64,000 nucleotides of DNA from an uncultured Verrucomicrobiae bacterium (GCA_963756875.1 CAVWPA010000003.1:1024001-1088000); one strand, 5' to 3'. Numbered from the stretch's first letter, positions 31,722 through 47,890 are shown. A program made the numbers and translations. Notes: a model not told the origin generated them from the letters alone.

Positions 31722-34052
31722 ATGTCCGGACCGCGCTCCACGCGTTCGGAATTATTCGGCGCAATCGTAGCCGGGCTGACCGTCATTTTCTTCTGCATCA
31801 TTCTTCTCTGGCACAATCCGCTTCTTTTCTGGAACGACGATTACGAAGTGTCGATTTTGCCGGTGTTCGCCGATGTCGCGCGCAGTTGGAGTCATGGCCA
31901 TCTTCCGCTGCTGAGTCCCTATTCCTGGGTCTGCAATAATCTGGCCGGCGAATTTCAGTACGGAACATTTTCGATCTTTGTAAACGCGGCCGTCGTTCTG
32001 ATCTGGAAGTTTCCACTGACGTTTTCCCAGCAAGCCGCCGCACTTTCCATGGCACACCTTTTTGTGCTCGCAGCCGGCGCTTTCCTCCTCGCTCGGGGTC
32101 GGCTGCGCGACAACGCGAACTTCGAAGCGCCCTCACCCCAACCCTCTCCCTCAGGGAGAGGAGGACGACGAAGTCGCCTGGTGAGGGAACTTGCAAGCGA
32201 CTCCTTTGCATTGTCGGTCTTCGTTGCGCTGGTCGCTGCGTTGAATGGTTGGATCATCTGCTGGGGGGCGACGGATTGGTTTGGCGCCCTCGGTGCTTTC
32301 GCCTGGTTGCCGTGGGCGTGGTGGGGGCTGGAGCGGGCTCTGGCTACCGGCAGGGATGCTGCGTTGCCAATTCATAAGCGGCTTATGATCGGAGCGCTTT
32401 GGCCGGCGCCGTTCGTCTATCTGGTCGTCACCGGAGGGTTTCCATACACCGTTCTGATGCTGGCACTCCTGATCGTTTGGTTATCGATCGAATCGTTAGG
32501 CCAGACACGAAGTTTTCTGTCCATTTTGCCGATGCTTTTGGGTGTGACGCTTGCCGTCGCGCTTTCCGCGCCGGCCTGGTTGGCGCTTTTTGATTACCTC
32601 CATGGCTCGGCGCGGACGATGCAGACGAGTTCAATGCATTTTCAATGGCTCGTTCCACCGGCTGCGCTGCCTGGATTGATCTTGCCCTGCTGGACTGTGA
32701 AATGGGCCGATTTTTACACGCATTATCTTCCGCATACAGGAACGGAACTGGCCTGCGGGCTCGTCGCGCCGGCGGCTCTCATTGCGGGACTGCTCAGTCG
32801 CGGACGCGCGCCTGTTAGGCGACTCAAGTGGGATCTCGTTCTGCTCGTCGTCACGCTTTTACTCTCGATGGTCCCAACCATCAGCGTCTTCCGCTGGAGT
32901 TTTCGCTGGCTGCCGTTTTTTTATTTGGTTCTCGCCTTGTGCGCGGCGGAAGCGCTGCAAGGTGGCATCGGCTTCCAACCGATGTTCACTGGCAAGATGC
33001 CCGTGATCCGGGCAGGCCTGGTCGCTCTAATTCTAGTCGCTGCTTCTGCGATCACGATGTTGATCTTCCACGTTGGCGGGGCTTACGCATTCCCGCTCAT
33101 ATGGATTTTCCTGACGATCGCCGGGATCTGGATGCTGGCCGAATTTCTTTTGCCTAACGAATCGCTGCGCGCATGGCTGCCCGCTGGCGTTACCTTTGCC
33201 GTGTTCCTGACCACCTATCTCTGCATTCCGACCAATCCCGGCGTGCCGAGGTACAATTTCAGCCAGGAACTGCTCAAAGCCGCACCGCTCGATCCGCAAC
33301 GTCTTTACCTGAGCATTTATCCGCCGCCGGAAACGAGTTATCGCGTTGAAGCGGATCCGGGGCCGGTTGGGCAGATCGTTCGACCGGGAAGCACGTCAAT
33401 GTGGAGCAAAGTTCATTTGATTAACGGCTACAGCCCGATCTCAGCGGCGGGGATCGCCTGCGAATTCAAGTTTGCAACGCACGGCGAAATCGATCCGAGC
33501 GTCGCGGAATCTCTGCTCGACGAGGAAGCAGGCCGCGATGGACTGCTGGCGCGTCTCGGAGTTGATGGAATTATCGTCGCGGGAGCAATGGATATGGCGC
33601 CGTCGCCGGAGATCCAGTGGCAGCTTGCATTTGTATCCAATAAAGGACGCGTTTATCACCGGGTCGGTGCGCCTTTTGCCCGCGTTCGATCTGTGTCGTC
33701 AATTGATACCCGACCTAACGAGCAATTTGCAACAGCCGCGATCTCACATATCGACGAGTCGCGAAATTGCGTTGCGGCAGATGTGGATGTGCCGGGCGGC
33801 GGTTCGCCTGCGCTTCTGACTTTTTCGCGTCCGTACTTTCCGGGTTACCAGGCGCGGTTGGGAAATCGAAGCCTTCGTGTTGCGTCGTATCGCGGTTTGT
33901 TCCCCACGGTTGAGGCGCCCGCTGGATCGCATGGCCGGCTGGTGCTGGCTTATCGGCCATGGTGGTTGATCTACGGAGGCGCCGTTGCAATAGTTAGCGT
34001 CGCGGTCTGGATTTTCGGCATTGCGACCGTGCTTCGAAATTTGCGGCGGTAA
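31722..34052 (+). CDS. Polytopic membrane protein, YfhO/GT-C-like glycosyltransferase candidate, with in-frame repeat insertions
   Basis: N-terminal TM then WNDDY and PLLSPYSW; many TM helices; FRWSFRWLP; C-terminal RPYFPGYQA...G(R)LVLAYRP plus a final TM, as in YfhO-like proteins. Confidence 0.65.
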   Translation: MSGPRSTRSELFGAIVAGLTVIFFCIILLWHNPLLFWNDDYEVSILPVFADVARSWSHGHLPLLSPYSWVCNNLAGEFQYGTFSIFVNAAVVLIWKFPLTFSQQAAALSMAHLFVLAAGAFLLARGRLRDNANFEAPSPQPSPSGRGGRRSRLVRELASDSFALSVFVALVAALNGWIICWGATDWFGALGAFAWLPWAWWGLERALATGRDAALPIHKRLMIGALWPAPFVYLVVTGGFPYTVLMLALLIVWLSIESLGQTRSFLSILPMLLGVTLAVALSAPAWLALFDYLHGSARTMQTSSMHFQWLVPPAALPGLILPCWTVKWADFYTHYLPHTGTELACGLVAPAALIAGLLSRGRAPVRRLKWDLVLLVVTLLLSMVPTISVFRWSFRWLPFFYLVLALCAAEALQGGIGFQPMFTGKMPVIRAGLVALILVAASAITMLIFHVGGAYAFPLIWIFLTIAGIWMLAEFLLPNESLRAWLPAGVTFAVFLTTYLCIPTNPGVPRYNFSQELLKAAPLDPQRLYLSIYPPPETSYRVEADPGPVGQIVRPGSTSMWSKVHLINGYSPISAAGIACEFKFATHGEIDPSVAESLLDEEAGRDGLLARLGVDGIIVAGAMDMAPSPEIQWQLAFVSNKGRVYHRVGAPFARVRSVSSIDTRPNEQFATAAISHIDESRNCVAADVDVPGGGSPALLTFSRPYFPGYQARLGNRSLRVASYRGLFPTVEAPAGSHGRLVLAYRPWWLIYGGAVAIVSVAVWIFGIATVLRNLRR

Positions 34053-34203
34053 ACACAACTCGACGGTTTGTTGCATCGCGGCGCGAGTCTTTTTTGCTCA
34101 ACAGCAGCGACGCGGACGCTCTGCGGCCACGGTGGCGGTTTGTAGCAAAAGAAATGGTTCCTCGATCACGAGAAAAGCCATGTTTGAAAATAAACGGCGG
34201 TTG

Positions 34204-35475
34204 CTACCGTTTCCGACGCAACTCGGATTCCGGTGCTTCAAGGGCCGCCGCGGAAAAATAAAATCCGCCGAGACCGACGGAGTGGACCAACACCCGTGCG
34301 ACATCAACGTCGAGCGGCTCCCGGATAATGCGCAGGGGACCGCACGCAGGATCGAGGCGATCGCAATTAAGCGTCGGAGGAACCTGGCCGCGCGCAATTG
34401 TTAGGCAGGCCGCCGTTATTTGAAGAGCGGATGATCCAGCGCCATGTTGCCCAAGCGCGCCCTTGGTTGAATGGATTGGCAATTTTGCCAGTCGAGTTCC
34501 GAATGTTGCTGCCAGCGCCATCCCCTCGAGCCGATCGTAATTGCGTGAAGCGGATCCGTTAGCGTTAAATACCTGCACGTCGTTTGGGGACCATCCTGCG
34601 TTCTTTATGGCGCTTCTGAAAGCCCGGACACATGGCCGCATATCGAGAGCTGGCCGCGTTGCATGATAACGGCGGCGGCCTGAAGATTGAACTGCTGTTC
34701 CTGCGATCGTCGCGTAAGCGCGCGCGCGACGTTTTCGTGCGTGCGATTCGGACTCAACAATAAACGCCGCTGCGCCTTCGCCAATAACATTGCCATCGCG
34801 ATTGATGTCGAACGGCCGCGAGGCTGCCTCCGGCCGATCGTTCCATCTCGTGGCCAGCGATGCTGAGGCGTTGAGCAGAGCGAGAATTTCAGGCGTAAGC
34901 TCGCAGTCAGTCCCGACTACAAGCGCTGCGTCCAATGTGCCAGCTTGAATGGTTTGTGCCGCGAGACCAAGCGCATCCATTCCGGAATTGCATCCGGTGG
35001 AAGTCGTGTGCACTGGTCCCTGCAAGTCAAACTGCGATGACACAACGCAGGCCACGGAATGATTGAATGCGTGAAACGCCCCCGAAGGAGTGAGCGGCCT
35101 GCGGGCCTGCCAGCGATCGCGCAGTTCAAAGCAATATTCCAATTGACCAACAGACGTGCCGACAAACACGCCGATACGTTGTCGATCGGCTGAGCGAAGC
35201 TCGAATGCCGCATCTTCGATCGCCAGGGCGGCGGCGCCGAGCGCCAGTACCACCGGTCGCGGCGACGTTCGTGTAATTGCGCGCCCACCTTCCACGTAGC
35301 GCTCGAGGCGGAAATCTCGCACCTCGGCGCCGATCTTGGAATCCGACCGGCTCACGTCGCATCGTGTGATTGGGCCGATTCCTGATCGACCACGTAGAAG
35401 CGCCTTCCAGAACTCATCGACGCCATGGCCGATCGCGCTAACCGGGCCGATGCCAGTGATGAGCGCCTTTGTCAT
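34204..35475 (-). CDS. Atypical FabF-like beta-ketoacyl synthase with both catalytic His substituted
   Basis: ALITGIG, STGCNSG (Cys retained), ASRPFD, GEGAAA; NANGSAS replaces NAHATST; STKGALGQHG replaces STKSMTGHLL; PPTLN. Confidence 0.85.
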   Translation of the reverse strand: MTKALITGIGPVSAIGHGVDEFWKALLRGRSGIGPITRCDVSRSDSKIGAEVRDFRLERYVEGGRAITRTSPRPVVLALGAAALAIEDAAFELRSADRQRIGVFVGTSVGQLEYCFELRDRWQARRPLTPSGAFHAFNHSVACVVSSQFDLQGPVHTTSTGCNSGMDALGLAAQTIQAGTLDAALVVGTDCELTPEILALLNASASLATRWNDRPEAASRPFDINRDGNVIGEGAAAFIVESESHARKRRARAYATIAGTAVQSSGRRRYHATRPALDMRPCVRAFRSAIKNAGWSPNDVQVFNANGSASRNYDRLEGMALAATFGTRLAKLPIHSTKGALGQHGAGSSALQITAACLTIARGQVPPTLNCDRLDPACGPLRIIREPLDVDVARVLVHSVGLGGFYFSAAALEAPESELRRKR

Positions 35476-35490
35476 CGAGGCGCGAGCGGC

Positions 35491-36042
35491 TCAATTGTAT
35501 CGGCCAAACAGCCAATTGCCCGCGGCATTCTCGTCGTTGCTAAAGTAGAACTCTTTAACACGCTCCAGCGCTTCCTGCTTCGAGATGCGACCATTTCCAG
35601 TCACGTCCAATTTTTCGAACGCCTCGTTTACTGCCGCCTGGTCGCGAATGCCGTAGGCGTCGAGGAAATCTCTAAAGTCATCGTGGGAAAGATGTTCGTC
35701 GTGATTGCGATCGAATGCCTCGAACAAAAGATCGACTGTGCCAACCGTGATCTGCTCGTACATGTCCGGCGCGCTTAACATCTGTGTGTGAAACTCCAGG
35801 AACTCGTCAAGGCTAACCTGTCCGTCGTTATTAACATCGGCCAGCGCCTTGAGATTGCCCCAAATCGTCAGATAGAGACTCTCAATTGCCGAATACTCCT
35901 TTGATCCGGCTTTCCATCCGTGGATTCGGGCGACGTTGGACACGACGGCAGTGTAATCGTTGCGCTCAAGTTGATTGTTGTGGTCCGAGTCCAGCACGGT
36001 GAACAGCCGGCCCAGCTTCTTCTTCTGAAAATCGGTGAGCAT
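35491..36042 (-). CDS. Four-EF-hand calcium-binding protein (calerythrin/SCP/calexcitin-like)
   Basis: Loops DSDHNNQLERND, DVNNDGQVSLDE, DRNHDEHLSHDD, DVTGNGRISKQE; C-terminal EFYFSND...GNWLFG. Confidence 0.9.
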   Translation of the reverse strand: MLTDFQKKKLGRLFTVLDSDHNNQLERNDYTAVVSNVARIHGWKAGSKEYSAIESLYLTIWGNLKALADVNNDGQVSLDEFLEFHTQMLSAPDMYEQITVGTVDLLFEAFDRNHDEHLSHDDFRDFLDAYGIRDQAAVNEAFEKLDVTGNGRISKQEALERVKEFYFSNDENAAGNWLFGRYN

Positions 36043-36185
36043 TAACGACTCTCTGTCGGCTGGGTCGCCACTGTCAAGAACGTAAGCAGCCTGCGATCCG
36101 CCCCTTTAAAGCCGCGGTGGCGGAAACATTAATAAATTTTACCGCCGTCGACAGCGGTAACTACAACTTCGTCATTCGCAACTAT

Positions 36186-37389
36186 CTAATAAACGTCGCG
36201 CTTGTAACGCTTCTCGCTCTTTAGTTGCTCGACGTAGGCGTTCGCCTCTTCGACGCTCTTGCCGCCCTGGTCCTGTATGATTTTTCGCAGCGCAGCGTCC
36301 ACATCTTTCGCCATGCGTTTGCGCGTCGCCACAGACTAAAAACTGCGCGCCCTCGCTATCGATCCATTTCCAGATTTCGGGCTCGTGCTCCAGCATTTTG
36401 TGCTGGACGTAAATTTTATGGGCCTGATCGCGCGACCAGGCGCAATCGAGTCGCGTGAGAACGCCGTCGCTCTGGAACTGCGCCAAGTCCTCCCTGTAGG
36501 CATAGTCGGATTTCTCGTGTTGCGCTCCGAAGAAGAGCCAGTTTTTTCCCTTGGCGCCGCGCGCCTGTCGCTCCTGCAGAAACGCGCGGAACGGCGCCAC
36601 GCCTGTCCCCGGTCCAACCATGATGATGGGAGTATCCGGATTTTCCGGCAGATGAAAATGTTTGGCGACGCTGGGATAAACCGGCACCGGAACGTTGTCC
36701 GCGCGTTCGGAAAGGAACGTCGAGCAGACGCCATTGCGAATCCGGCCGCGACTTTCGTAACGGACCACGTCCACGATAAAATGCACCCGGTTGGGATAAA
36801 CGCGCAGGCTGGACGCAACCGAATAAAGACGTGGCTGCAGTTTCGTGAGCAGATCGACGAATTCCTGCGGCGTGAATTTTACGGACGGATGTTCGATTAA
36901 GAAATCAATCACTTCCATGCCCCAGAGGTATGTATTCAGGTCCTGCTTGCGTTTCGGATCGAGCAGTCCCTTAAGCAGTGGCGCAGCGGAGGCCCGATCG
37001 ACGATCGCTCTCAAAAACTTGGGCGTGGGTTGTGTAATGGAACAGTCGCGTGAGAGCGCCTCACGGAAAGGTGTTTGAATTTTCGCCGCCGACACCATTT
37101 CATCGCCTTTTGCCCCAAGGGCGCGAATGATTTCTTCAACCAACTGGGGATCGTTCGTCGGATAAACTGCCAGCGAGTCACCCGGCTCGAAGCTTAATCC
37201 CCAGGCGGTGAGATCGATCTCCAGATGGCGCGTGTCCTTTTCGGACTCGGGGCCGCTCATGCGTCGATTAACGACGAGTTTGCCGGGAAACGGATTTTTC
37301 CGCGTGTACGGCGTCGTGGGCTTGGATGGTTTCGGTCCTGTAGCGGCCGCCGTCTCGGGCGGCAGAACGTTGTCTGTAACTTCCGGCAT
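36186..37389 (-). CDS. CysJ-like FAD/NADPH-binding flavoprotein lacking the flavodoxin domain; +1 frameshift near 36321
   Basis: YTRKNPF, PRLYSVASS, GVCSTFL, MVGPGTGVAPFRAF, WLFFG, SRDQ, KIYVQ. Removing one base in gacgcgcaaa restores CGDAKRMAKDV...KRYKRDVY-TAG. Confidence 0.88.
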
Positions 37390-37509
37390 GTAAATTGGTA
37401 GCGGCGATCTGCGATCGTCGCAAATACTTGCTTCGTGGCATCGGCATCTTGCCGATCTTTAAGCATCGCTCTCGCCGCAGCGGGCAGGCTGTGGAGCGAT
37501 CGGTCCACC

Positions 37510-40500
37510 TCATCGCGGGGGTGGAATTGGGCTCGGCTCCACTTCCGATTCAGAGGGCGAAACTGCCGGAGATGGTGATGGCGTGGGTGCCGGAAGCGAC
37601 GTGAGAACCTTCCCGCTCCTGGTTGTCAAAACACCGCCGGAAAGCGCGACATCTTCCACGCGATACAACTCGCCTTTGCGCGGTTGGAAATCTTTTCCTT
37701 CCCCAGATGTCGATTTTCGATAAAAGCGTTCCATTTCATCGAGATGAAATGGCCGCGCTCCCCGGCGGCCGAAGACGACCGTTTGTCCACCTGTTTCATC
37801 CACCACACGATCGCGGTCTAGTCCGCGCGAGACACAAATCGCTTCACCTTTTGTGCGATAGGTCGCGATCAACTTTGGATTGGGGCGCGGATTGAATCCC
37901 TGCGCGCCGGGGACAGTGTCGGGCGAAATTAACTGCACGACGCGCAGGCCATTTTTACCGTCGGCCACCAGCGCGAACTCGGACGCGTTGACGCTGCCGA
38001 TCTGGACGGCGCGCGTGTCGTTCAATGCGCCATTCGCGCTGAACATCTGGTCGACGAACGGATGCTCCGGGTTTTCGACATCGATGATGGCCAGCCCGTC
38101 CGGCCCATTTGCCACGTAGGCGTAGGTACGCGCGACATACAAACGGCCGGCGTGATTGAGTCGCAGGGTGGCGCGTGGCAACGGGACCGGCCGTGTCGGC
38201 TCGGTGAGATCGACAATCTTCAATCCGTCGTCGTCGGTAATAAAACCGTAGCGAAATTGTACCGCAACGCAGCGTGGGTTTCGCAGGAATCCGTTCGTCA
38301 ATTGTCCCGCGATACGTGGATGCATCGGGTCGCTCACATCGATCACATAAAGTCCGCGCGGCGTCGTCATGTAAAGCCGATGCCCGGCCGCCGCGACAAA
38401 TGACGCTCCGTCCAAGACGCCGTCAGGATTAAAGGTGAGACCTTTTTTTAGGAAATTGTTATCGGGATTTCCATCGACCAATGTGGCGACATTGATGACG
38501 ACAAGGCCCTCGACGCGGTCGGAGACATAAACGAACGCGTAAAACAGGTCGATGGGCTGCTCTTCGTTCTCGGGGATATGCTTCCGCCCGGGGTCGAGCG
38601 CGAGCGTGCTCGGCAAGGCAACGGAAGTTGCGTCAGGCGTGTGCACGTACGTTCGCTGGCCAAGCGGCGAGACCGGCGAAGTCACGATCCGTTCCGAAAA
38701 TCCCTTTTGATCGATATTCGCGACATCGAACGCTTCGAAACCGCCCGGCCCGTTTGCGGTGTAAAGGTATTCGCCGCGCAAGACAACGTCTTGAATATCC
38801 TTTCCCGAATGTTCGTACGCTTCCTGCAATTCGCCGCCCAGTTCGAGGTGCTTTTTGTAATCGGCCGGATAGGCGAGCTTTTGCAGATGACTTCCGATAG
38901 CGGCTTGCGGTTCCTCGGGCTCGGTCCAGACCACGGCGTGGAATCCTTCGCGCCCTTCTCCTACGTAGGCGTAGCGTCCGAAGAAATTCACCGTGCCGGT
39001 GCCGAAGCCTAACAATTGCGCCATCCATGCATTGTTGTCGTTGTTCCTGGACAAATGGCAGTCGGTGCAATTTTTTGTCGTCCCCACGCCGCTCGTTGTG
39101 TGTGGGAAATGCGGATTGAACGCCTGACCACTGTAACCTTCCGCCGAGATGGTTTGCTGCTGGGAATAAACCCACTCCCGGTTCGCATTTTGTGAGCCGA
39201 CCACGACTGCGCTCGACGAGCGAATCACCGCCATCCGGTTCTTTTTCACGCTGCCGTCGAGCCCGAGCATGAAGACATCGTCCCGCACCACCTGCGGATT
39301 GTAAGTTGTGAAGTTCCGATCGGTCACGCCTTCGAATTTGTTTTGCGGCACGCGCTGGTTTGCTTTCATCGGCAAATGGCAGCCGAAACAACTCGTCGCC
39401 CACGAGCTGTGACAGATCTGGCAATCCATCGCCGAGTTATCGTGGGCGAGACGAACCCGGGGCTCGTTATCTTGACTGCTTAAAGCAGTCAAGTTCGCTG
39501 GAGACGTTCTCGTTTCCGGGAGAGGGCCACCCCAGGTTTTTCCATCGATGCGGAGCGTTTTTGCGTAGGCGGACTTTGGATTGTAGTGCGGCGAGAGCGG
39601 ATCGATCGTGTCGATAGTTTGCGGGATTTCCCAGCGCACATCGGGCGACATGCTCGATTGTTGCCAGAGCTTATTGCCTTCCCACGTAAACCGCGGTCCG
39701 AACGGTGTGTTGCTCGTGTGGAGCAAATCGATCTGGCCGGCGTTGCCGCTCGTAATCAGCGTCGGCCGCCGATTGATTGTGCCATGGCAATCGATGCAGG
39801 TGATTGCCGTGGCGTTGCGCGATTCGCCGTAAAGCATCCCGTTCCCGTGAACATCGATATCGAAATGGCAATCGCCGCATTGCATCCCGTCCGCGAGATG
39901 CACGTCTTTCAGGTGAACGGCTTTGGCAAACTTCCGCGGATCGTTGTCGTCGATCTTGTCGTCGTCGAGATCGAGCAGATTGCCTTTGCGATCGTGTTTG
40001 AAGACCGCGCGAAAGACCCATCCGTGGCCGTGGTAATCGGCAAACTGCGTGTGCTTGAGCTCTGGATTTAGCTCGGCGACGTGATCGAGAAAATCCTTGT
40101 CGCCCCAGAGTCCGCGCGCGGCGGCTGCTTCCGGATTGACCATCGTCGCTCTGACCAATTCTCCATCGGTCGGATTGTGCTGCTTTTTCGGATACATGAA
40201 CTCGCCGTCGGTCTCCTGGTCCCACCAGGTGTAACCGAGATACGGATTCACGAAGAGATTCCCCTGGTGCATGTGGCAGTTCATGCATTGGCTGGCCGGG
40301 ATCGAGCGTGTGAATTGATGAATAATCGGATGACCGCGCTCGGTTTTCGGAATCGTTGGATCGGCCGTGAAACTCAAGCCTTCGTGTCCGTATTTGCTCC
40401 ACCAACCCGAGTTCGTTGGCGAACGATCGTTGGCGTACACAACGTGGCAGGCCGAGCAACCGCTCGATCGGTAATCGCCCGGATGATCGTTCGAGCCCAA

Positions 40501-41460
40501 AAAACCCAGCAACGGATCGTGCAGTCGTGTTTTTTGAATCCCGAGAAAGACCGGGTCGGTACGGTTGAGCGTGCCGAGTCCGCGTTGCGACAGTCGCCGA
40601 TCGGGTTTCCCATCCGGCTCGGCGGTAGTAGGCAGGCCTAACGAAAGAGGTTTGCGCCCGCCTTTTTCGAAAATGCGCAGGATGTTTCCCGGATTGCTTA
40701 AATTGAATCGCGGCACCGGCTCGATGAATGGGAGGATGCCGTGCACGCGCGTGTCTTCGGGAGTTACCGGCGTGTAATTGATCAGCTTGAGTGGCGCGCC
40801 GTCCGCGCCGTAAGCCTGGCCGAACCGGTAGTTTTTCAGGTAAAACCCGCCGTTATTATATAGAGCCGCCCCCCAGAGCAAGGCGCCGGTGTTCATCATG
40901 CTGTGATCGACGTCGCGAATAATGCGCTCGTGACAAAGCCCGCAGGCTTGCTCGGCCACGCGCAGATCGCCGGGATTGAAAAATCGAATGAATTCCGGCG
41001 ACTCATGGTTCAGCCGCGTGTTGGAACGCGGCGGGTTGGCTGACGTTTTCCAAAATTCCTTGTCCCTCGGCAAAATATGCGCCTGCTCTTTTTTGAGATT
41101 GAGGGCCGGGTTGCCGCCGTGGCAATCAGTGCAGCCAAGCACGACGTGCTGCGCTTTGTGCATCGGTTCGATGTCTTTGTGGCATTGCAAACAGCCGACG
41201 CTCTTTGCGTTCGCCTGGGCTTGCGTCTGGTCGATCCAATTCCGCGGCGGCAACGCGACCGGCGCAACAGTGGATTTTGAAACAGGGACGGAAGTGGGCG
41301 GCCCGTAACCGGTTTCGGAAGCACCAAGCACCAGGTTCCAAGTTCCAATGAAGCACCAAGCCCCAATCATCAAGCTCCAACGGAAATGAGCGTGTGTGTG
41401 CTTTGGATTTTGGAGATTGGAGTTTCTCCGCTGCTTGGCGCTTGGTGCCTGGTGCTTCAT
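37510..41460 (-). CDS. Exported decaheme cytochrome c fused to a C-terminal LVIVD-repeat beta-propeller (~1316 aa)
   Basis: Ten CxxCH motifs: CLQCH, CTDCH, CGLCH, CSACH, CMNCH, CGDCH, CIDCH, CQICH, CFGCH, CTDCH. Seven LVIVD-like repeats (e.g. YAYVANGPDGLAIIDVENP). ATG at 41460 overlaps the upstream TGA (TGATG). Confidence 0.9.
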   Translation of the reverse strand: MKHQAPSAKQRRNSNLQNPKHTHAHFRWSLMIGAWCFIGTWNLVLGASETGYGPPTSVPVSKSTVAPVALPPRNWIDQTQAQANAKSVGCLQCHKDIEPMHKAQHVVLGCTDCHGGNPALNLKKEQAHILPRDKEFWKTSANPPRSNTRLNHESPEFIRFFNPGDLRVAEQACGLCHERIIRDVDHSMMNTGALLWGAALYNNGGFYLKNYRFGQAYGADGAPLKLINYTPVTPEDTRVHGILPFIEPVPRFNLSNPGNILRIFEKGGRKPLSLGLPTTAEPDGKPDRRLSQRGLGTLNRTDPVFLGIQKTRLHDPLLGFLGSNDHPGDYRSSGCSACHVVYANDRSPTNSGWWSKYGHEGLSFTADPTIPKTERGHPIIHQFTRSIPASQCMNCHMHQGNLFVNPYLGYTWWDQETDGEFMYPKKQHNPTDGELVRATMVNPEAAAARGLWGDKDFLDHVAELNPELKHTQFADYHGHGWVFRAVFKHDRKGNLLDLDDDKIDDNDPRKFAKAVHLKDVHLADGMQCGDCHFDIDVHGNGMLYGESRNATAITCIDCHGTINRRPTLITSGNAGQIDLLHTSNTPFGPRFTWEGNKLWQQSSMSPDVRWEIPQTIDTIDPLSPHYNPKSAYAKTLRIDGKTWGGPLPETRTSPANLTALSSQDNEPRVRLAHDNSAMDCQICHSSWATSCFGCHLPMKANQRVPQNKFEGVTDRNFTTYNPQVVRDDVFMLGLDGSVKKNRMAVIRSSSAVVVGSQNANREWVYSQQQTISAEGYSGQAFNPHFPHTTSGVGTTKNCTDCHLSRNNDNNAWMAQLLGFGTGTVNFFGRYAYVGEGREGFHAVVWTEPEEPQAAIGSHLQKLAYPADYKKHLELGGELQEAYEHSGKDIQDVVLRGEYLYTANGPGGFEAFDVANIDQKGFSERIVTSPVSPLGQRTYVHTPDATSVALPSTLALDPGRKHIPENEEQPIDLFYAFVYVSDRVEGLVVINVATLVDGNPDNNFLKKGLTFNPDGVLDGASFVAAAGHRLYMTTPRGLYVIDVSDPMHPRIAGQLTNGFLRNPRCVAVQFRYGFITDDDGLKIVDLTEPTRPVPLPRATLRLNHAGRLYVARTYAYVANGPDGLAIIDVENPEHPFVDQMFSANGALNDTRAVQIGSVNASEFALVADGKNGLRVVQLISPDTVPGAQGFNPRPNPKLIATYRTKGEAICVSRGLDRDRVVDETGGQTVVFGRRGARPFHLDEMERFYRKSTSGEGKDFQPRKGELYRVEDVALSGGVLTTRSGKVLTSLPAPTPSPSPAVSPSESEVEPSPIPPPR
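39463..39500. repeat. Palindrome CTTGACTGCT-N3-AGCAGTCAAG in frame inside the cytochrome gene
   Basis: Near-identical inverted copy lies intergenically at 55944-55982. Confidence 0.8.
41318..41458. repeat. 7-mer-unit palindrome (family of 3624-3769) forming the first ~47 codons of the cytochrome
   Basis: gaagcaccaagcacca ... ttggtgcctggtgcttc termini matching the intergenic copy. Confidence 0.85.
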
Positions 41461-43529
41461 CAATAAGTGAGCGTCACGGTCACGATGGCGCTGTAAAGAA
41501 ACGGATCGACGTGGCCGCCTGGCGGGCTGGGATAACCGGGCACGGGCGTCGTGATGGTGCGATAGATGTCCCTGTAACCCGTGCGCGGAATGAGGAACCC
41601 CGTGCCGGCGGTGACGATGATGTTTTCGGTGAGCAACGGCCGCCATTCAAACCCGGCGCTGCAGTCGAGCGCGAAATCGTTACTCCCGTGGTTGGTAAAA
41701 AGGACCAGCTCGGTCGTTGCCGTGTCAACCGTGCGAATGTAATTCACGTTCATGAAGCCTCTCAGCTTTGGTGTGATGTCGGCATCGAGCCCATAACCGA
41801 AGATGAGCGCTCCCGGATTCACGAAGTTGGCCTGGCCTTCGGTTTTGCTGGTACGGAAATCGATCACCAGGCTGTCGCGTTGCTTAAAGTTGACCGACGT
41901 TCCGCCGAGATTGAATCCCTGGTGCGAATAAAAGCTGAATGGTCCGCCGATAAAAAATGGCCGGTCCATCACTGTGTCGAAGCCGGTGGCGTGCGAGTCC
42001 GCCGGGTTGCTGTCGCCGCTCGCGTAAAAAATCGACAATTTGTGCCGGAGCCAGTTGTTGTCGACAGACAACTCGAGTGCGGCCATGTGCGCGTTGATGT
42101 TGGTGCGCTTTCCGGCGATCCCGTTGAGACTGTCCTCACCAAGGACCTGATAAAGCGCGTGGTCGATGTTGAGCCAGCCGATGTGTCCGTCGCCGGTCCA
42201 ACCGAGATAGTATGCCTGCACGTAATGATCACCCACCGTGCCGATCGGTGCGGGCCGGGTAATGAAGCCGTTCTTGTCGTAATGCCGGCTGTTGTTGTCG
42301 AAATCGGCCAGAAACGTGAGCTCGCCGGTGTAACCCTTCCAAATTAAATCCTGCCGGAAGACGTTCGCGACATAAACCTGTTGCTGGCGCCGGCTGAATT
42401 CGTTCAGATCGGAGTAGGTGTCCTTCTCCAGCATATCGAAGGCGGCGACGTTGTATTGCCAGCGGTTATTGTCGTAGTTGCCGAAGATGCGCACGCCGAG
42501 GTTGGTATCGTTGAAAATGAACCCGCGAAAATCGCTCACGAACGGCTGAATGCCTGCGCGCATAGAAACGAAATCGTAATTGCTCGAAAGATCGCGCAGA
42601 TGGATTTCGGCGAATGCTTCCTGCATGGAGAAGAATTCCTTTTCGCGCGTGGTCCCGTTCTGCGGGTTGGGATTGACGACCCGGTTCTCCTCCACGTCGA
42701 TGTAGTTGTGATTGTAGACGCCGAGAAAGCGCAGCGCCCAATCGACCGGCTTGAATGCCGTCTCACCCTTGAAAAGATCGACGCCGATCGAAAAATCGTT
42801 CGAGTAAAAAAGTTGGTCGCTCAATCCGAAAAACTCGGAGCTGTTCGGCTGCGCGGAGCTTACGCCGCTTGGAGTCGGGAGTTTGCGCGCCTCGAATTGA
42901 AAGAAATCTTCCAGGGTGATGTTGAGGAAAACGTCCTGGCCGTAAATCGGCGCGTCTCCTTTGAGTTTGCTTTGCAAATAGGGATGCCACAGTCGCAACT
43001 CCGATTGATAAGGCGTTTCGGTCGACGGATCGGCGTAGCGCTTCCAACGGCCGAAACCGATGAACCAGCGGTTCGGCTCGGGCCGCGACGACGGCAGCAG
43101 GCCTTCGCCCTGTTCTGATTCCGGGTAAATTTCATATTGGAGTTCGCGACGACGCGGCACCACCTCGCGGACACCCTTGCGCGGAAGTTGAAGTGAGCGC
43201 GGCAATGGTTCCTCGCCGTATTCCGGAAGCTGCGGAAGAATGGGCGGGAAAAGTTCGGGCGGCGCTTCCGGCTCGGTCCGTTCGGATGCCCCGGGGTCCG
43301 GATTAAATTCGGAAGGGTATTCTTCATCGTCTTGCGCGAGGAGGGTGGTATTCGCGAAAATCAAATCGCCCCGAAGTGCAAGAATCGGCGGGCTGTAGCT
43401 GGGATTGTCGATCCCGGCCGATGATTGGGACTCGAGGTTTCCGGTATTGACCTCGACGGTCTGCCCGTGCCCCGCGCCGATACCGGTGCAAGAAAGGAGT
43501 CCGGCAAACAGCGCGATCCTCCGGCGCAT
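41460..43529 (-). CDS. Outer-membrane beta-barrel (porin-like) protein
   Basis: Signal peptide MRRRIALFAGLLSCTGIGAGHG; acidic Pro-rich linker; alternating amphipathic strands rich in aromatics, D, N and G; C-terminal VTVTLTY beta-signal. Confidence 0.8.
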   Translation of the reverse strand: MRRRIALFAGLLSCTGIGAGHGQTVEVNTGNLESQSSAGIDNPSYSPPILALRGDLIFANTTLLAQDDEEYPSEFNPDPGASERTEPEAPPELFPPILPQLPEYGEEPLPRSLQLPRKGVREVVPRRRELQYEIYPESEQGEGLLPSSRPEPNRWFIGFGRWKRYADPSTETPYQSELRLWHPYLQSKLKGDAPIYGQDVFLNITLEDFFQFEARKLPTPSGVSSAQPNSSEFFGLSDQLFYSNDFSIGVDLFKGETAFKPVDWALRFLGVYNHNYIDVEENRVVNPNPQNGTTREKEFFSMQEAFAEIHLRDLSSNYDFVSMRAGIQPFVSDFRGFIFNDTNLGVRIFGNYDNNRWQYNVAAFDMLEKDTYSDLNEFSRRQQQVYVANVFRQDLIWKGYTGELTFLADFDNNSRHYDKNGFITRPAPIGTVGDHYVQAYYLGWTGDGHIGWLNIDHALYQVLGEDSLNGIAGKRTNINAHMAALELSVDNNWLRHKLSIFYASGDSNPADSHATGFDTVMDRPFFIGGPFSFYSHQGFNLGGTSVNFKQRDSLVIDFRTSKTEGQANFVNPGALIFGYGLDADITPKLRGFMNVNYIRTVDTATTELVLFTNHGSNDFALDCSAGFEWRPLLTENIIVTAGTGFLIPRTGYRDIYRTITTPVPGYPSPPGGHVDPFLYSAIVTVTLTY

Positions 43530-43705
43530 AATCGCGCCGGTACACGATGGACTTAACCAGCGCATGGGAGTGCGAGAATGCCGGAGATACCCGGTTATTG
43601 GCAAGCTAACACGGAAGGCAGCCCGGACCGGCTAAGGCAACATCTTGGGATAGCAGCTGATTTTTAGTGGCAAATCATGGCTGATCTTGGTAGACCGGAG
43701 TGGCC

Positions 43706-45514
43706 ATGAAGCCGGCTTGGTCGCATTCTTTCGGACTGCCGATTTTTCTCGCGGTCCTCCTCGGGGCGCCGCGGATTTTTGCTTATCCGCCGGAGCCGGT
43801 CATCGTCGCGTCCACCGGAAACCATTACGTTGTAACGTGGGATGCGGCCTATTCCGACGGATTTCATCTCGAATCGAGTTCGGACCTCGGGGCCATGAAC
43901 TGGACCTCAGTTACAGCGGCACCCACGATTGTCGGCGATAAAAAACAGGTCGTGGTCACGGGAACGGGCGCACCAACGTTTTTTCGGCTGGCTGCTCCGC
44001 TGGTGCTCAGCCCGCTCACGGCTGCTGATGTTCAAACAATCATTAATCACGCGGTGACGCGCGCCGTCACTGTTTCGCCGAACAGCGTGATTGCAGTGAC
44101 CGATCGCGAGGGGGATGTGCTGGCCGTCTGGGTCGTGCGCGGGGGAGCGGCCAGTAACGAGGAGATTGCCACGGCGGTTTCAAAGGCGGGCACCGCAGCG
44201 TTTTTAAGCAGCAATCAGAATGCGTTTAGCTCGCGCACGGCCGGGTTCATCATCCAGCAACATTTTCCACCTGGAGTGAGTAACACCTCGACAGGGCCGC
44301 TGGTCGGTGTCGGCCTATCAAGTCTTTTTATTTCCGACATCGATAAGTTTAGAAAACCGGGCAGCATCATTTCGTTCAGTCCAACGCCGGGCCTGACAAT
44401 TTTACCGGTGCCGAACACTTCGCTGGATGGTTCGCCAGGCGGTCTGCCACTTTACAAGAACGGCAAACTCGTTGGCGCAATCGGCGTCACCGGCGACGGA
44501 ACGCCGTCGGCAATTGCCGGGTTCCGCTCGGAAAATCCGTTCAAATACATCGCCGGCTCCGATGTGGACGAGGATGTCGCGCTAGCCGGAAAAAAGGGAT
44601 TTGCGCCGTCGTCCAGCATTACCGCGGACAATGTTTTCATCAGCGGAATTCGCCTTGCTTACGTGAACTCGTCGACGTCGACCTCTAATACTATTGTGCT
44701 GCAAGGCAATCCGGATCCGCAATATCCCACAATTCTGGCGCCGCCGCCGCCGTTTCCCTATCCCGCGGCAACCTTCGGTGGCGTCAGCGGAGAGATTCGC
44801 CAGCCGATTATCAGCGACCCGATGGTTGGCCTGATCGATGGGCAGCCGCGTCTCACTGCTGCCGAAGTCTCGAGCATCATTACGTACGCGGCGCAACGGG
44901 TGAAGATCACGCGCGCGGCCATTCGGCTTCCCATCGGCACGCAAATGGAGGCGTTCATCAGCGTCGTGAATAATCCGGACATGCCAGGTGTTACGCCCAC
45001 TGTGTTGGGAACGTTTCGCACCGGTGACGCAACTTTGTTCAGCTGGGATGTCGCCGTGCAGAAAGCGCGCACCGCACTCTATTATTCGAGCCATGATTTT
45101 CTCGGTTTCGGTTCGAACATCTCCATGTCGGTACGCTGTGTCGGATTTCTTGCGGAATGCAATTATCCACCCGGTATCGATGGCAATCCGCCGGGCCCGT
45201 TCAACGGACAGCAGGAAATGTTTTCCGGTTTGTCAGGCACTTCCTGCAATCCGGGGGCCATCGTGCCAAACCTAGCCTTTGTGCCCGATCCGAATTTGCC
45301 GAATGGAATTACGATTTTTCCCGGCGGCTTCGGCCTTTATCGCAACGGCGTGCTTATCGGCGCGATCGGGGTCAGCGGCGACGGAGTCGATCAGGACGAC
45401 CTCGTCAGCGCGTCCGGCACACAGGATTTTCTCGCACCGAATGCCATTCGCTCCGATCAATTCTTTTTCCGGGGCACGCGGCTTCCCTACGCGAAATTCC
45501 CGCGCGACCCGTGA
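43706..45514 (+). CDS. Exported protein with two GlcG/HbpS-like heme-binding domains and a small N-terminal beta-sandwich
   Basis: Signal peptide; domain 1 IAVTDREG...AVSKAGTA...GGLPLYKNGKLVGAIGVTG; domain 2 AVQKARTA...PGGFGLYRNGVLIGAIGVSGDGVDQDD. Confidence 0.82.
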   Translation: MKPAWSHSFGLPIFLAVLLGAPRIFAYPPEPVIVASTGNHYVVTWDAAYSDGFHLESSSDLGAMNWTSVTAAPTIVGDKKQVVVTGTGAPTFFRLAAPLVLSPLTAADVQTIINHAVTRAVTVSPNSVIAVTDREGDVLAVWVVRGGAASNEEIATAVSKAGTAAFLSSNQNAFSSRTAGFIIQQHFPPGVSNTSTGPLVGVGLSSLFISDIDKFRKPGSIISFSPTPGLTILPVPNTSLDGSPGGLPLYKNGKLVGAIGVTGDGTPSAIAGFRSENPFKYIAGSDVDEDVALAGKKGFAPSSSITADNVFISGIRLAYVNSSTSTSNTIVLQGNPDPQYPTILAPPPPFPYPAATFGGVSGEIRQPIISDPMVGLIDGQPRLTAAEVSSIITYAAQRVKITRAAIRLPIGTQMEAFISVVNNPDMPGVTPTVLGTFRTGDATLFSWDVAVQKARTALYYSSHDFLGFGSNISMSVRCVGFLAECNYPPGIDGNPPGPFNGQQEMFSGLSGTSCNPGAIVPNLAFVPDPNLPNGITIFPGGFGLYRNGVLIGAIGVSGDGVDQDDLVSASGTQDFLAPNAIRSDQFFFRGTRLPYAKFPRDP

Positions 45515-45633
45515 CGTAGAGACAGCATTTCGTCCGAGAACGCGCCGCCTGCCCGCCTGTTGGACGAGGAGTTGCCACCGCGACCATTGATCTTAGAATC
45601 TCGCGGGCGCGTCCGAAACCACGCGCCTCAAAC

Positions 45634-47052
45634 ATGCCTGAACCGATTGACCCGACAGCCGCTGAGTACGATTCGCCCACCAGTCAACGGCTGCCGTGTT
45701 CGACAGCGATCCCACCCGAAGTTCCACCGCACGATCCTTACGCAGCGTTTCGTTCGCGCGGCTTCACTTTTTTTACCGCGGGAAATCTACTTTCGATTAT
45801 TGGTCGCCAGATGCTGGCGGTCGCGGTGGAATGGGAAATTTATCAGAGGACGCATTCAGCCACGGCGCTTGGTCTTGTTGGGTTGGTCATCGCAATTCCG
45901 GTAGTGGGACTTTCGCTGCCGGCAGGACATCTGGCCGATCGGTTCAGCCGCAAACATATTCTTCTCATCTCACAAATTTTCAGCGCGTTGACGTCGGTCG
46001 CGCTGGCGTTGGTTTCCTGGAAGCATCTCGTCATTCCGCAGTGGCCGGTCCTGCGATACGGCAACGGAACCTTGAACGCGATCGCGGCCGTTTTCGAACG
46101 ACATCATCCGGCATTTCATTTTGACGACGCCTCCATTCCGTTGATTTACGCTTTGCTTTTAGTTTACGGAACGGCTCGCACGTTTGCCTGGGCGGCGCGC
46201 AGCTCGTTTTTTCCGACGCTGGTGCCGCGGGATGCGTTTGCCAACGCAGTGACCTGGAACAATAGCATCTTTCAAATTGGAACGGTCGTCGGCCCCGGGG
46301 TGAGTGGTCTGCTGATCGCTCACATCGGATTTCCTTTTGTCTATTTGCTCGATGCGATTTGTGCATTCTTGTTTTTTCTGCTCGTACTGCCGATCCACCA
46401 CAGGAGAGGGCCCCGTAATCAGATCGCAAAAAGCACATGGCGAAGTTTCGCCGCCGGGATCCGGTTCGTTCTTGGCAGGAAAGTGATTCTGGCAACGATT
46501 ACCCTCGACCTGTTTGCGGTGCTCCTGGGCGGCGCCACGGCGTTGCTTCCGGTTTTCGCCGACCAAATTTTGCACTGCGGACCAATCGGTCTTGGCTGGA
46601 TGCGCGCGGCGCCGGCCGTTGGCGCATTCGTCATGGCGCTGGCCGTTGCCTATTTGCCGCCGATGCGACAGGCGGGAAAGACATTGCTCTGGTGCGTCAC
46701 CGGGTTCGGAATTGCCACGGTCATTTTCGGCTTATCGACAGCTTTATGGCTGTCGCTCGGCATGCTGTTTTTGATTGGCGCATTCGACAGTGTGAGCGTC
46801 ATCATTCGTGGCTCGATTGTGCAACTGGTTACGCCGGATGAAATGCGCGGCCGGGTTTCGGCCGTGAACAATATTTTCATCGGAACATCGAATGAATTTG
46901 GCGCACTCGAATCCGGTCTCACTGCCGCGCTTTTTGGCCCGGTAATTTCGGTCGTGGGCGGCGGCATCGGAACGATTCTGGTCGTGCTCGCGGTGGCCTT
47001 TGGCTGGTCGGAAACGCGCAAGATCGGCGCGCTGGATCGAACGCTTCAATAG
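45634..47052 (+). CDS. MFS transporter (EntS/DHA3-like)
   Basis: AGHLADRFSRK motif A, ~12 TM helices, LDLFAVLLGGATALLP, TPDEMRGRV. Confidence 0.9.
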   Translation: MPEPIDPTAAEYDSPTSQRLPCSTAIPPEVPPHDPYAAFRSRGFTFFTAGNLLSIIGRQMLAVAVEWEIYQRTHSATALGLVGLVIAIPVVGLSLPAGHLADRFSRKHILLISQIFSALTSVALALVSWKHLVIPQWPVLRYGNGTLNAIAAVFERHHPAFHFDDASIPLIYALLLVYGTARTFAWAARSSFFPTLVPRDAFANAVTWNNSIFQIGTVVGPGVSGLLIAHIGFPFVYLLDAICAFLFFLLVLPIHHRRGPRNQIAKSTWRSFAAGIRFVLGRKVILATITLDLFAVLLGGATALLPVFADQILHCGPIGLGWMRAAPAVGAFVMALAVAYLPPMRQAGKTLLWCVTGFGIATVIFGLSTALWLSLGMLFLIGAFDSVSVIIRGSIVQLVTPDEMRGRVSAVNNIFIGTSNEFGALESGLTAALFGPVISVVGGGIGTILVVLAVAFGWSETRKIGALDRTLQ

Positions 47053-47098
47053 ATTTGTAGGGCGTCTGTGTCAGACGCCGCGTAGATTGGGTTGGTTT

Positions 47099-47890
47099 AT
47101 GAAAATTGCGGCAGCCCAGATTTCCTGCGCGCTCGGCGACTTGAAGGCGAATCTTTGCAAAGTCCGCGAATTTTCGGCGCGCGCCAAGGAATCCGGCGCC
47201 GGGCTTGTCGTCTTTCCCGAGATGGCGGACACCGGCTACTCCATGCCCACAATTCAAAAACATGCGACCTCCTGGAACGAAGGCGCCGTGCCGGAGCTGC
47301 AACAGATTGCCCGGGAATTGTCGCTCGCGATCGTGTGCGGCGTTTCGGAACGTGACGGCGCGAACATCTACAACACGCAAGCTTTTGTCGATGCGAACGG
47401 GGAAATTGTCGCGAAATATCGCAAGACTCACCTGGTAACGGCTGCTCCGCTGGACGAGCGCAGCTGTTTTTCGCCGGGTAACGAGTTTGTCAGTTGTAAG
47501 GTTGGCACGCTGAATCTCGGGCTGAGCATTTGTTACGATCTTCGCTTTCCAGAGATGTGCCGCACGCTCGCTGTCGAACACGGCGTCAATACGTTCATTA
47601 CTTCTTCAGCCTGGCCGTCGGTTCGTGCGGAGCATCTGCGAATCCTGGCCATGGCGCGGGCGATCGAAAACCAATGTTACCTCGTTGTGGCAAACCGCGT
47701 GGGCACGGACGGCGGTGTGACCTTGTGCGGTTTGTCCATGGTTGTCGATCCTTGCGGCGTCCTGGTTGCGGCCGCCTCGACCGATAGCGAGGAGTTGATT
47801 CAGGGGGAAATTTCGGATGAGAAAATCAACGACGCCCGAAAGCGAATGCTGGTGTTCGAGCATCGCCGGCCCGATCTTTACCGATTGTAG
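47099..47890 (+). CDS. Carbon-nitrogen hydrolase (nitrilase superfamily, YafV/MtnU-like amidase)
   Basis: E-K-C triad: VFPEM, YRKTHL, ICYDLRFPE; ARAIENQ, ANRVG, RRPDLY. Confidence 0.92.
   Translation: MKIAAAQISCALGDLKANLCKVREFSARAKESGAGLVVFPEMADTGYSMPTIQKHATSWNEGAVPELQQIARELSLAIVCGVSERDGANIYNTQAFVDANGEIVAKYRKTHLVTAAPLDERSCFSPGNEFVSCKVGTLNLGLSICYDLRFPEMCRTLAVEHGVNTFITSSAWPSVRAEHLRILAMARAIENQCYLVVANRVGTDGGVTLCGLSMVVDPCGVLVAAASTDSEELIQGEISDEKINDARKRMLVFEHRRPDLYRL

Follow-up and report, generated by a model that had tools for sequence, protein, structure and literature searches.

A conserved module of a predicted beta-barrel, a decahaem-propeller cytochrome and a tandem HbpS-like protein in an uncultured Verrucomicrobiae bacterium, probable outer part of a PCC4/Ptd kind of electron-transfer system

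The systems closest to the locus described here, PCC4 and Ptd, are gene clusters that have been proposed from sequence only. According to the available text of He, Barco, Emerson and Roden (2017; PMC5566968), PCC4 combines a porin with periplasmic cytochromes of four, five and ten haems, an iron-sulfur (FeS) protein and further redox genes. Its inner-membrane protein, with five helices, two Wx3Hx13H motifs and an SGxxG motif, is likened there to ferric-reductase domains, and these features are given as hallmarks of PCC3 and PCC4. The available text on the ptdABCDEFG cluster (10.1101/2023.11.21.568154) lists a pentahaem cytochrome bearing a beta-sandwich at its C-terminus, a porin, an oxidoreductase for flavin adenine dinucleotide and nicotinamide adenine dinucleotide (phosphate) (FAD/NAD(P)), a tetrahaem cytochrome, a protein with cyclic nucleotide monophosphate (cNMP)-binding and two 4Fe-4S elements, a ferric-reductase-like membrane protein and a decahaem cytochrome; its authors state that the function of Ptd is completely unknown. 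From what these two texts describe, we infer that Ptd and PCC4 are the same system. Here we analyse three neighbouring genes of an uncultured Verrucomicrobiae bacterium from soil, which lie in a stretch of 64,000 nucleotides (the window; GCA_963756875.1, CAVWPA010000003.1:1024001-1088000) of a 2.69 Mb genome assembled in 3 contigs and 87.6% complete. They encode a predicted outer-membrane beta-barrel, a decahaem cytochrome with a propeller and a tandem HbpS-like protein, and they form a real, conserved module, far beyond chance. Judged by its sequence features, this trio is a different outer module on a PCC4/Ptd kind of system and not a member of the Mtr/Pio/Mto group. It very probably belongs to such an electron-transfer chain, and we consider it probable that it is the outer-envelope module of a conserved system of this kind that extends over several phyla.

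A first-pass annotation of the window had reported an exported beta-barrel gene that overlaps by TGATG with the gene of a large protein carrying ten CxxCH motifs and a propeller, as well as a back-to-back gene close by; the open reading frames (ORFs), the motifs, the overlap and the back-to-back gene all lie where it had placed them. The barrel gene (41460-43529, minus strand; ORF 41460-43604, ATG at 43529) encodes an exported protein of 689 residues, and its stop codon has one base in common with the ATG of the cytochrome gene. The latter (37510-41460, minus strand; ORF 37510-41646, ATG at 41460) encodes a c-type cytochrome of 1316 residues, which consists of a haem-binding region (residues 86-802; 39055-41205, minus strand) with the ten CxxCH motifs, twelve further conserved His and Met526, a C-terminal propeller region of LVIVD repeats (Pfam PF08309; residues ~820-1250; 37711-39003, minus strand) with seven units by eye, and a Pro/Ser-rich tail. 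On the opposite strand, the HbpS-like gene (43706-45514, plus strand; ORF 43700-45514, ATG at 43706) encodes an exported protein of 602 residues. The divergent intergenic region between it and the barrel gene (43530-43705) measures 176 bp by the ORF boundaries.

The likeness of the whole system to PCC4/Ptd includes a porin gene beside a multihaem cytochrome gene, a tetrahaem and a decahaem cytochrome, an FeS/cNMP protein, an FAD/NAD(P) oxidoreductase, and a membrane protein of five helices whose pair of Wx3Hx13H motifs and SGxxG were confirmed here by a motif test. In contrast, the porin partner of PCC4/Ptd is a pentahaem cytochrome, whereas here it is a decahaem cytochrome of ~1300 residues with a seven-bladed LVIVD propeller, and a tandem HbpS-like protein is added. 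The word "propeller" is absent from the available PCC4 and Ptd texts (PMC5566968; 10.1101/2023.11.21.568154). The inner set thus appears to match PCC4/Ptd and the outer set to differ, being set apart by the descriptions of PtdA and PtdB in the available text. In the literature on multihaem LVIVD proteins (where the match concerned another system), on LVIVD repeats in general (where no title concerned a cytochrome), on HbpS/GlcG/DUF336 and on Udaeobacter multihaem proteins, no published account of a barrel, decahaem-propeller and HbpS-like outer module was found. The first-pass annotation had known of no characterised member; this stands in so far as none of the close homologues has a functional name (their titles are "hypothetical", "cytochrome c3 family" and "multiheme c-type cytochrome"), but the PCC4/Ptd clusters provide a precedent.

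Our comparison of loci revealed that the trio is kept together among the Verrucomicrobiota; the loci are kin, and the synteny counts given here are no statistical test. A search of 40 relatives with the cytochrome returned 12 genomes at E<=0.001 (10 strong matches and 2 weak, propeller-only ones), a tally that includes one unpublished genome (G002), on which nothing else here depends, and all 9 loci fetched from close relatives carry the divergent HbpS-like gene, the barrel and the cytochrome as in the window. For a wider verrucomicrobial set, a 16-sequence barrel alignment was searched against one genome per species, and the best 80 of at least 598 stretches, titled Verrucomicrobiota save for a few out-of-place titles (Klebsiella, Proteobacteria), were combined with the 9 relatives to give 89 loci. 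Of the 78 loci that offer 1.5 kb of room or more, 70 have the cytochrome directly downstream of the barrel. In the 72 that offer 2.5 kb or more, the HbpS-like gene is divergent and adjacent to the barrel in 49, lies elsewhere in the locus in 7 and was not found in 16. Where both sides could be evaluated (66 loci), 51 loci have all three genes, 7 only the cytochrome, 1 only the HbpS-like gene and 7 neither. The 8 barrels without an adjacent cytochrome adjoin unrelated genes (SMC, TamB/Omp85, HisRS) and sit in one clade of 14 (support 0.91) which also contains cytochrome-linked barrels. The cytochrome was found elsewhere in the genome, at 63-68% identity and with no barrel in the fetched flank, in 5/5 genomes of such loci; the pair was thus unlinked, not lost, in this barrel clade.

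The module also extends beyond this phylum. Searching shorter proteins with the haem region yielded ~50%-identical fragments, none of them functionally named, with titles from Acidobacteria, Planctomycetes, Tectomicrobia, Gammaproteobacteria, Bacteroidota and others. When an alignment of 19 fragments was searched against metagenome contigs, it matched at least 599 stretches, of which 554 were confirmed and the best 80 kept; their cytochromes are 43-55% identical to that of the window. In all 67 evaluable loci of this set the barrel stands immediately upstream of the cytochrome on the same strand, and 46 of 50 have the HbpS-like gene upstream of the barrel (33 on the same strand, 13 on the opposite one). 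The pentahaem neighbour of the porin that marks PCC4/Ptd is replaced in these 67 of 67 and in the 70 of 78 verrucomicrobial loci by the decahaem-propeller cytochrome. Moreover, a c554-like cytochrome gene directly follows the decahaem-propeller gene in 26 of 51 metagenome loci. Trio and arrangement are therefore kept across orders and phyla, as the co-occurrence check proposed for the locus shows when it is run across genomes. Barrel and cytochrome pairwise distances correlate (r = 0.84 over 119 loci, with 0/200 permutations reaching this r), which is consistent with a partnership, although shared descent alone could yield the same value. Two insertions were seen along the way: an ORF of ~175 residues that belongs to PF05635, the family of 23S rRNA-intervening sequence proteins (e.g. 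L006:7842-8363), lies between barrel and cytochrome in 13 loci and breaks there the tight coupling seen in the window, and an exported NHL-repeat propeller gene, which is not in the window, directly follows the big cytochrome in 16 verrucomicrobial loci (e.g. L048:15755-17140).

The cytochrome carries exactly ten CxxCH motifs (at residues 90, 110, 173, 335, 392, 528, 555, 680, 691 and 798), and a motif search found no CxxCK or spaced variants of the haem motif in it. Every one of the ten columns is retained in 124-125 of 127 aligned orthologues, and for this reason the 19 long family ORFs with nine CxxCH are probably ORFs truncated by contig ends. Beyond the motifs, twelve His and Met526 are conserved in the haem region of the 127 orthologues, enough for the six-coordination of all ten haems; the ten motifs and the twelve His would also suffice to give each haem bis-His ligation. 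The propeller matches LVIVD (PF08309) at 60.8 bits against a cut-off of 20.2, and seven LVIVD-like blades were counted by eye from residue ~832 to ~1190. When the His, Met, Cys, Lys, Tyr and Trp residues of the propeller are considered, the conserved ones are Y864, K919 and Y1115 only; no His, Cys or Met is conserved there among the 127 orthologues. Given the conserved His and a propeller of this kind, we read the cytochrome as a protein of electron transfer to which a binding domain is attached, and not as a metal-centre enzyme. Its likeness to solved structures is weak, local and at the level of haem motifs (octahaem nitrite reductase, E about 1e-3; NrfB, 0.09). The best named sequence model is ExtM (NF040943) of the Geobacter sulfurreducens Ext cluster, whose operon includes an outer-membrane channel, as does the trio by our prediction. 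However, the window cytochrome is not a member of this family, since it reaches 70.3 bits (E 1.1e-19) against a cut-off of 800, with a best stretch of ~50 residues around a haem pair; the orthologue in locus L096 scores 76.4 bits. The 1316-residue start is a candidate and not proven: the public gene call (P0124) has 1286 residues and starts at Met31, whereas the longer start retains a positive stretch before the hydrophobic core, and some orthologues show a similar upstream peptide. A short conserved motif, G-x-G-P-x-x-S/A-V, lies just past the signal peptide.

The first ~150 residues of the barrel protein form a Pro/Glu-rich N-terminal extension. A conserved core follows up to residue 689, and it measures about 480-540 residues across the family. 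The export proposed for it agrees with its signal-peptide-like N-terminus, while the barrel fold is a prediction for which searches of Pfam (E<=0.01), NCBIfam and PDB sequences gave no match. Of 155 family members, 149 end in an aromatic residue, positions -3 and -5 being hydrophobic, and a crude profile scan detected many amphipathic alternating segments. Among language-model neighbours there were verrucomicrobial and planctomycete hypothetical proteins and one alginate-export cluster (score 0.96). The 689-residue protein is predicted to be an outer-membrane beta-barrel because of this start, the C-terminal aromatic residue, the amphipathic segments and the alginate-export neighbour cluster. 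The Alginate_exp model (PF13372) itself did not match the window barrel, had no match in the genome at E<=1 and matched 1 of 50 diverse barrel relatives (E 0.0094); the MtrB_PioB family of Pfam matched none of the 50 at E<=0.1. In total, the barrel family comprises 1456 clusters at 50% identity (E<=0.001). Three of the 150 relatives listed (P0260, P0263 and P0362) bear an N-terminal tetrahaem extension with four CxxCH motifs and a class III cytochrome c match. This fusion resembles Cyc2, and it ties the barrel family to cytochromes.

The third member of the trio had been described as a haem-binding protein with two GlcG/HbpS-type domains. The domains were recovered, with PF03928 matching in two stretches (62.7 bits, cut-off 25) that follow ~100 lineage-specific N-terminal residues. 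In contrast, haem binding found no support: the columns that are at least 95% conserved in 101 orthologues include no His, Cys, Met or Tyr, and its sequence relatives of solved structure, a formaldehyde sensor among them, comprise EfgA, the C-terminal domain of PduO and a protein like GlcG. By the titles of the papers concerned, members of the GlcG/HbpS-like family bind differing ligands, and the protein, which accompanies the pair constantly, may serve as a chaperone, a sensor or a small-ligand binder.

Clustering of all locus ORFs revealed further recurring neighbours, namely a protein of 283-311 residues that contains four to five helices of hydrophobic character, a membrane-anchored, c7-like cytochrome with ten CxxCH (in L096 and L007), a c554-like cytochrome with 3-4 CxxCH and one CxxxCH/CxxxxCH match, an FeS protein with two cNMP-binding domains, and flavoproteins of the NuoF-like, FNR/2Fe-2S or CysJ-like kinds. 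Many metagenome loci have a one-strand order of FeS/cNMP protein, membrane protein, decahaem cytochrome, HbpS-like protein, barrel, cytochrome and tetrahaem cytochrome, and all six queried genes occur together in 25 of the 80. The trio had been proposed as a distinct three-gene envelope redox machine; the conserved module agrees with this proposal, but it is not self-contained, as it forms the outer part of a system of 6-8 genes. Among 23 members of the membrane-protein family, Wx3Hx13H is present in all 23, at least two Hx13H in 21 and SGxxG in 20, and the motifs are also found in L096 and in the copy of the source genome. In 301 evenly sampled genomes of the phylum this family occurs in 13, which include 7/7 of the cytochrome carriers. 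In the source genome the system is dispersed over at least four sites: besides the window, these are, on contig C3, the membrane protein and decahaem genes (C3:97952-100354, the membrane protein at C3:97952-98881), the NuoF-like and FeS/cNMP genes (C3:125565-130152) and a c554-like gene (C3:485143-486144), all outside the window.

From genes, motifs, synteny and genome-level co-occurrence one can sketch a chain, in which flow direction, placement of the big cytochrome, its physical complex and the acceptor would be as described below. In the cytoplasm, an NAD(P)H flavoprotein and the FeS/cNMP protein would reduce the five-helix, ferric-reductase-like di-haem-b protein of the inner membrane. 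Electrons could then pass to the membrane-anchored decahaem and periplasmic tetrahaem cytochromes and on to the big ten-haem cytochrome, which is made together with the barrel and probably docked to it. The big cytochrome would be the terminal reductase, with a propeller that serves for binding and not for metal catalysis. Its redox partner, an acceptor or shuttle that is extracellular or admitted by the barrel, would gain access through the barrel, which would not sheathe the haem chain in the manner of MtrB; or the barrel would anchor the cytochrome. The flavoproteins beside the module are CysJ-like in the window, FNR/2Fe-2S and NuoF-like in other loci and a Pyr_redox fusion in L096. On balance we favour outward flow from NAD(P)H, because the partners on the cytoplasmic side are constantly flavoproteins of the NAD(P)H type and the known ferric-reductase-domain proteins (NOX, FRE, MsrQ) carry electrons outward. 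Similarly, an access channel or docking site appears somewhat likelier for the barrel than a haem sheath, since the haem region is bulky, the barrel core has ~480-540 residues and the sole family hint is an alginate-export-type channel. A more specific version is tentative and rather unlikely to hold in full: NADPH-oxidase/ferric-reductase-like chemistry spanning two membranes, in which electrons of NAD(P)H would travel via di-haem-b and about 25 c-type haems to the propeller cytochrome at the outer membrane, in mostly aerobic bacteria of soil and water. It might serve, outside respiration, the reduction of Fe(III) bound in minerals, humics or chelates, the product being let in by the barrel for uptake, or the formation of extracellular superoxide.

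Several observations weigh against the trio being the outer part of such a chain. The cytochrome has a type I signal peptide without a lipobox from either start, which leaves its surface exposure unproven. Its family is ~50% identical across phyla, which looks more enzyme-like than conduit-like, conduit cytochromes being fast-evolving, and which would suit an enzyme and a conduit alike. Its distribution is patchy, with 7 carriers among the 301 sampled genomes. The decahaem (C3:98917-100354) and FeS/cNMP (C3:127656-130152) genes of the source genome each match in two frames, and one of the frame junctions lies near a GAAAAAGGGG run; the chain may be broken here by gene decay, or these may be indel errors of the assembly. 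Furthermore, two soil DNA runs with small shares were listed as containing the stretch, and no RNA runs. The last point concerns the direction of flow and leads to the first alternative.

The same architecture could work inward, accepting electrons of a donor that is external or let in by the barrel, such as Fe(II), Mn(II) or reduced humics and passing them to the quinone pool or to cytoplasmic FeS or flavin proteins. Sulfate reducers have transmembrane haem-b/FeS complexes that move electrons inward, and the membrane protein of the present system could work as a quinone-active cytochrome b. A reverse, inward flow with the membrane protein acting on quinones is also what He et al. suggested for PCC4 in the available text, its carriers there being Zetaproteobacteria and Hyphomicrobium of settings where iron or pyrite is oxidised (PMC5566968). 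However, judged by record titles, most of the carriers found here belong to heterotroph-type lineages of soil and freshwater, flavoproteins of the NAD(P)H type are conserved partners, and the reduction of NAD(P)+ by Fe(II) is uphill. Together with the outward role of ferric-reductase-domain proteins, this makes inward flow unlikely.

Even less likely, in our view, is that the big cytochrome is a periplasmic multihaem enzyme of the NrfA or octahaem-reductase kind, acting on some small, soluble compound of nitrogen or sulfur, with the barrel merely as its substrate-specific porin. This would suit the high conservation across phyla, the plain signal peptide, the alginate-export-type channel family among the language-model neighbours of the barrel and the resemblance, weak and local, that links it with octahaem nitrite reductase and NrfB (E about 1e-3); a possible nitrogen-cycle role is mentioned in the available text of the Ptd authors (10.1101/2023.11.21.568154). 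However, the likeness to PDB structures is limited to haem-pair motifs, the cytochrome has no CxxCK or other variant catalytic motif, and its twelve conserved extra His and one Met suffice for ten six-coordinate haems. Moreover, a conserved input chain fed by NAD(P)H and a propeller of the binding type better fit a reductase of bulky or varied acceptors.

A true conduit of the Mtr kind, in which part of the ten-haem chain threads the barrel and so spans the outer membrane, is improbable. As in MtrCAB, MtoAB and PioAB, the gene of an outer-membrane barrel adjoins that of a ten-haem c-type cytochrome, ten being also the haem count of MtrA, and the pair is the presumed outer end of an envelope electron path; its translational coupling and invariant adjacency would suit such a conduit, and the N-terminal G-x-G-P-x-x-S/A-V motif could be a tether. 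However, the gene order is reversed here, and the cytochrome, with 1316 residues, is about four times larger and has a propeller and widely spaced haems, so that its bulky haem region takes about 720 residues for ten haems compared with about 300 in MtrA. The barrel core of about 480-540 residues is shorter than MtrB-type barrels. The present system has no lipoprotein outer cytochrome, and for input it has flavoproteins of the NAD(P)H type and a haem-b protein of ferric-reductase likeness instead of a quinol dehydrogenase of the CymA type. Furthermore, neither the MtrB_PioB family nor the MtrA/DmsE model of NCBIfam matched, the latter being searched with the window cytochrome, in agreement with the earlier suggestion that these genes stand apart from MtrAB, PioAB and MtoAB. 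That the three genes are unrelated neighbours, as the opposite strand of the HbpS-like gene in the window and the 8 loci with a barrel beside unrelated genes might suggest, can practically be dismissed in view of the synteny over phylum-level divergence, the cytochrome retained in 5/5 tested genomes of the barrel clade of these loci and the HbpS-like gene in the same operon in 33 metagenome loci.

If the trio is indeed the outer part of an envelope-spanning haem chain fed by NAD(P)H, it would bear on the electron exchange of aerobic soil heterotrophs with iron, humic matter and oxygen. By record title, the carriers belong to Chthoniobacterales, Verrucomicrobia, "Candidatus Udaeobacter", Acidobacteria and Planctomycetes, and they include highly abundant, hard-to-grow soil lineages. 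The family is large, thousands of homologues being present at 90% clustering, but none of its members has been studied and the barrel has no Pfam or NCBIfam model. One knockout or the biochemical characterisation of one member would allow many genomes to be annotated. Such work would also test whether the PCC4/Ptd proposals represent real conduits.

Other porin-cytochrome candidates have been described in the same phylum. He et al. (2017) reported, in the available text, a verrucomicrobial cluster of a porin and a multihaem cytochrome (porin-MHC) with a periplasmic cytochrome of eight conserved haem sites, a porin of at least 20 strands and homologues in "Ca. Udaeobacter copiosus" (PMC5615132). 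The trio is unlikely to be this cluster, given eight haem sites there and ten conserved ones here, as far as the text describes them, and a better-fitting pair elsewhere in the source genome. The latter (L095:16088-19174; C3:~392-395 kb, outside the window) starts with a 304-residue cytochrome with seven CxxCH, followed by an exported, beta-rich ORF of 428 residues without a Pfam match and an ORF of 274 residues; the seven-haem cytochrome and the 428-residue protein may be the porin-MHC as described in that text. Near this pair lie a cytochrome b and nine-haem pair, ResB/CcsA haem-attachment genes, an 11-haem and b561 pair and a NapC-like cytochrome. EET3 and EET4 of Fiorito et al. 2026 (10.64898/2026.05.27.727921) are likewise porin-cytochrome candidates of this phylum, and the word "propeller" is absent from the running text of that study, the comparison being limited to the text without figures and supplements. 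By the texts available, both studies probably concern genes other than the trio.

In the metagenome locus L096, seven genes follow each other on one strand: a Pyr_redox-FAD/two-cNMP/4Fe-4S fusion, the membrane protein, an FHA-decahaem-FHA protein (L096:4024-6198), the tandem HbpS-like protein, a barrel whose N-terminus is CarboxypepD_reg-like, then the decahaem-propeller cytochrome and finally the c554-like one. The FHA domains at both ends of this decahaem protein, beside the cNMP domains of the FeS protein, hint at a control by Ser/Thr phosphorylation.

With regard to regulatory elements, Rfam gave no match across 34000-47500, and a promoter and terminator scan detected no promoter-like match in the divergent intergenic region of the window. 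Consensus boxes of FNR, CRP and Fur gave nothing useful in 56 barrel/HbpS-like intergenic regions, apart from one loose CRP-like match. A 10-mer around GCTTGCCAAG is present in 7 of these 56 regions, including that of the window, and may represent a common operator or mere shared ancestry of close relatives. Between the cytochrome stop codon and the start of the CysJ-like gene downstream the scan found no terminator-like site. A hairpin of 9 pairs with a T-rich tail (36139-36160, minus strand) lies directly past the stop codon of the CysJ-like gene; it is weak evidence for a terminator, since the 18 terminator-like sites of the scanned region are not above chance (15.1 in shuffles).

The CysJ-like gene (36172-37389, minus strand) lies 120 bp downstream of the cytochrome and is likely a member of the operon. 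It encodes an FAD/NAD(P)H oxidoreductase without a flavodoxin domain (Pfam FAD_binding_1 and NAD_binding_1), which matches the TIGR01931 cysJ profile at positions 226-555 only, and by analogy it may play the part of PtdC in Ptd clusters. It stands beside the cytochrome in 5 of the 9 close relatives and in further Chthoniobacterales loci. Just downstream of it, a protein of 183 residues with several EF-hand calcium-binding motifs is encoded (35491-36042, minus strand), which is not conserved beside the module in the relatives examined. In the CysJ-like protein itself, a basic tail of ~45 residues replaces the usual C-terminus; the NCBIfam matches end at about residue 358, and the tail is matched in relatives.

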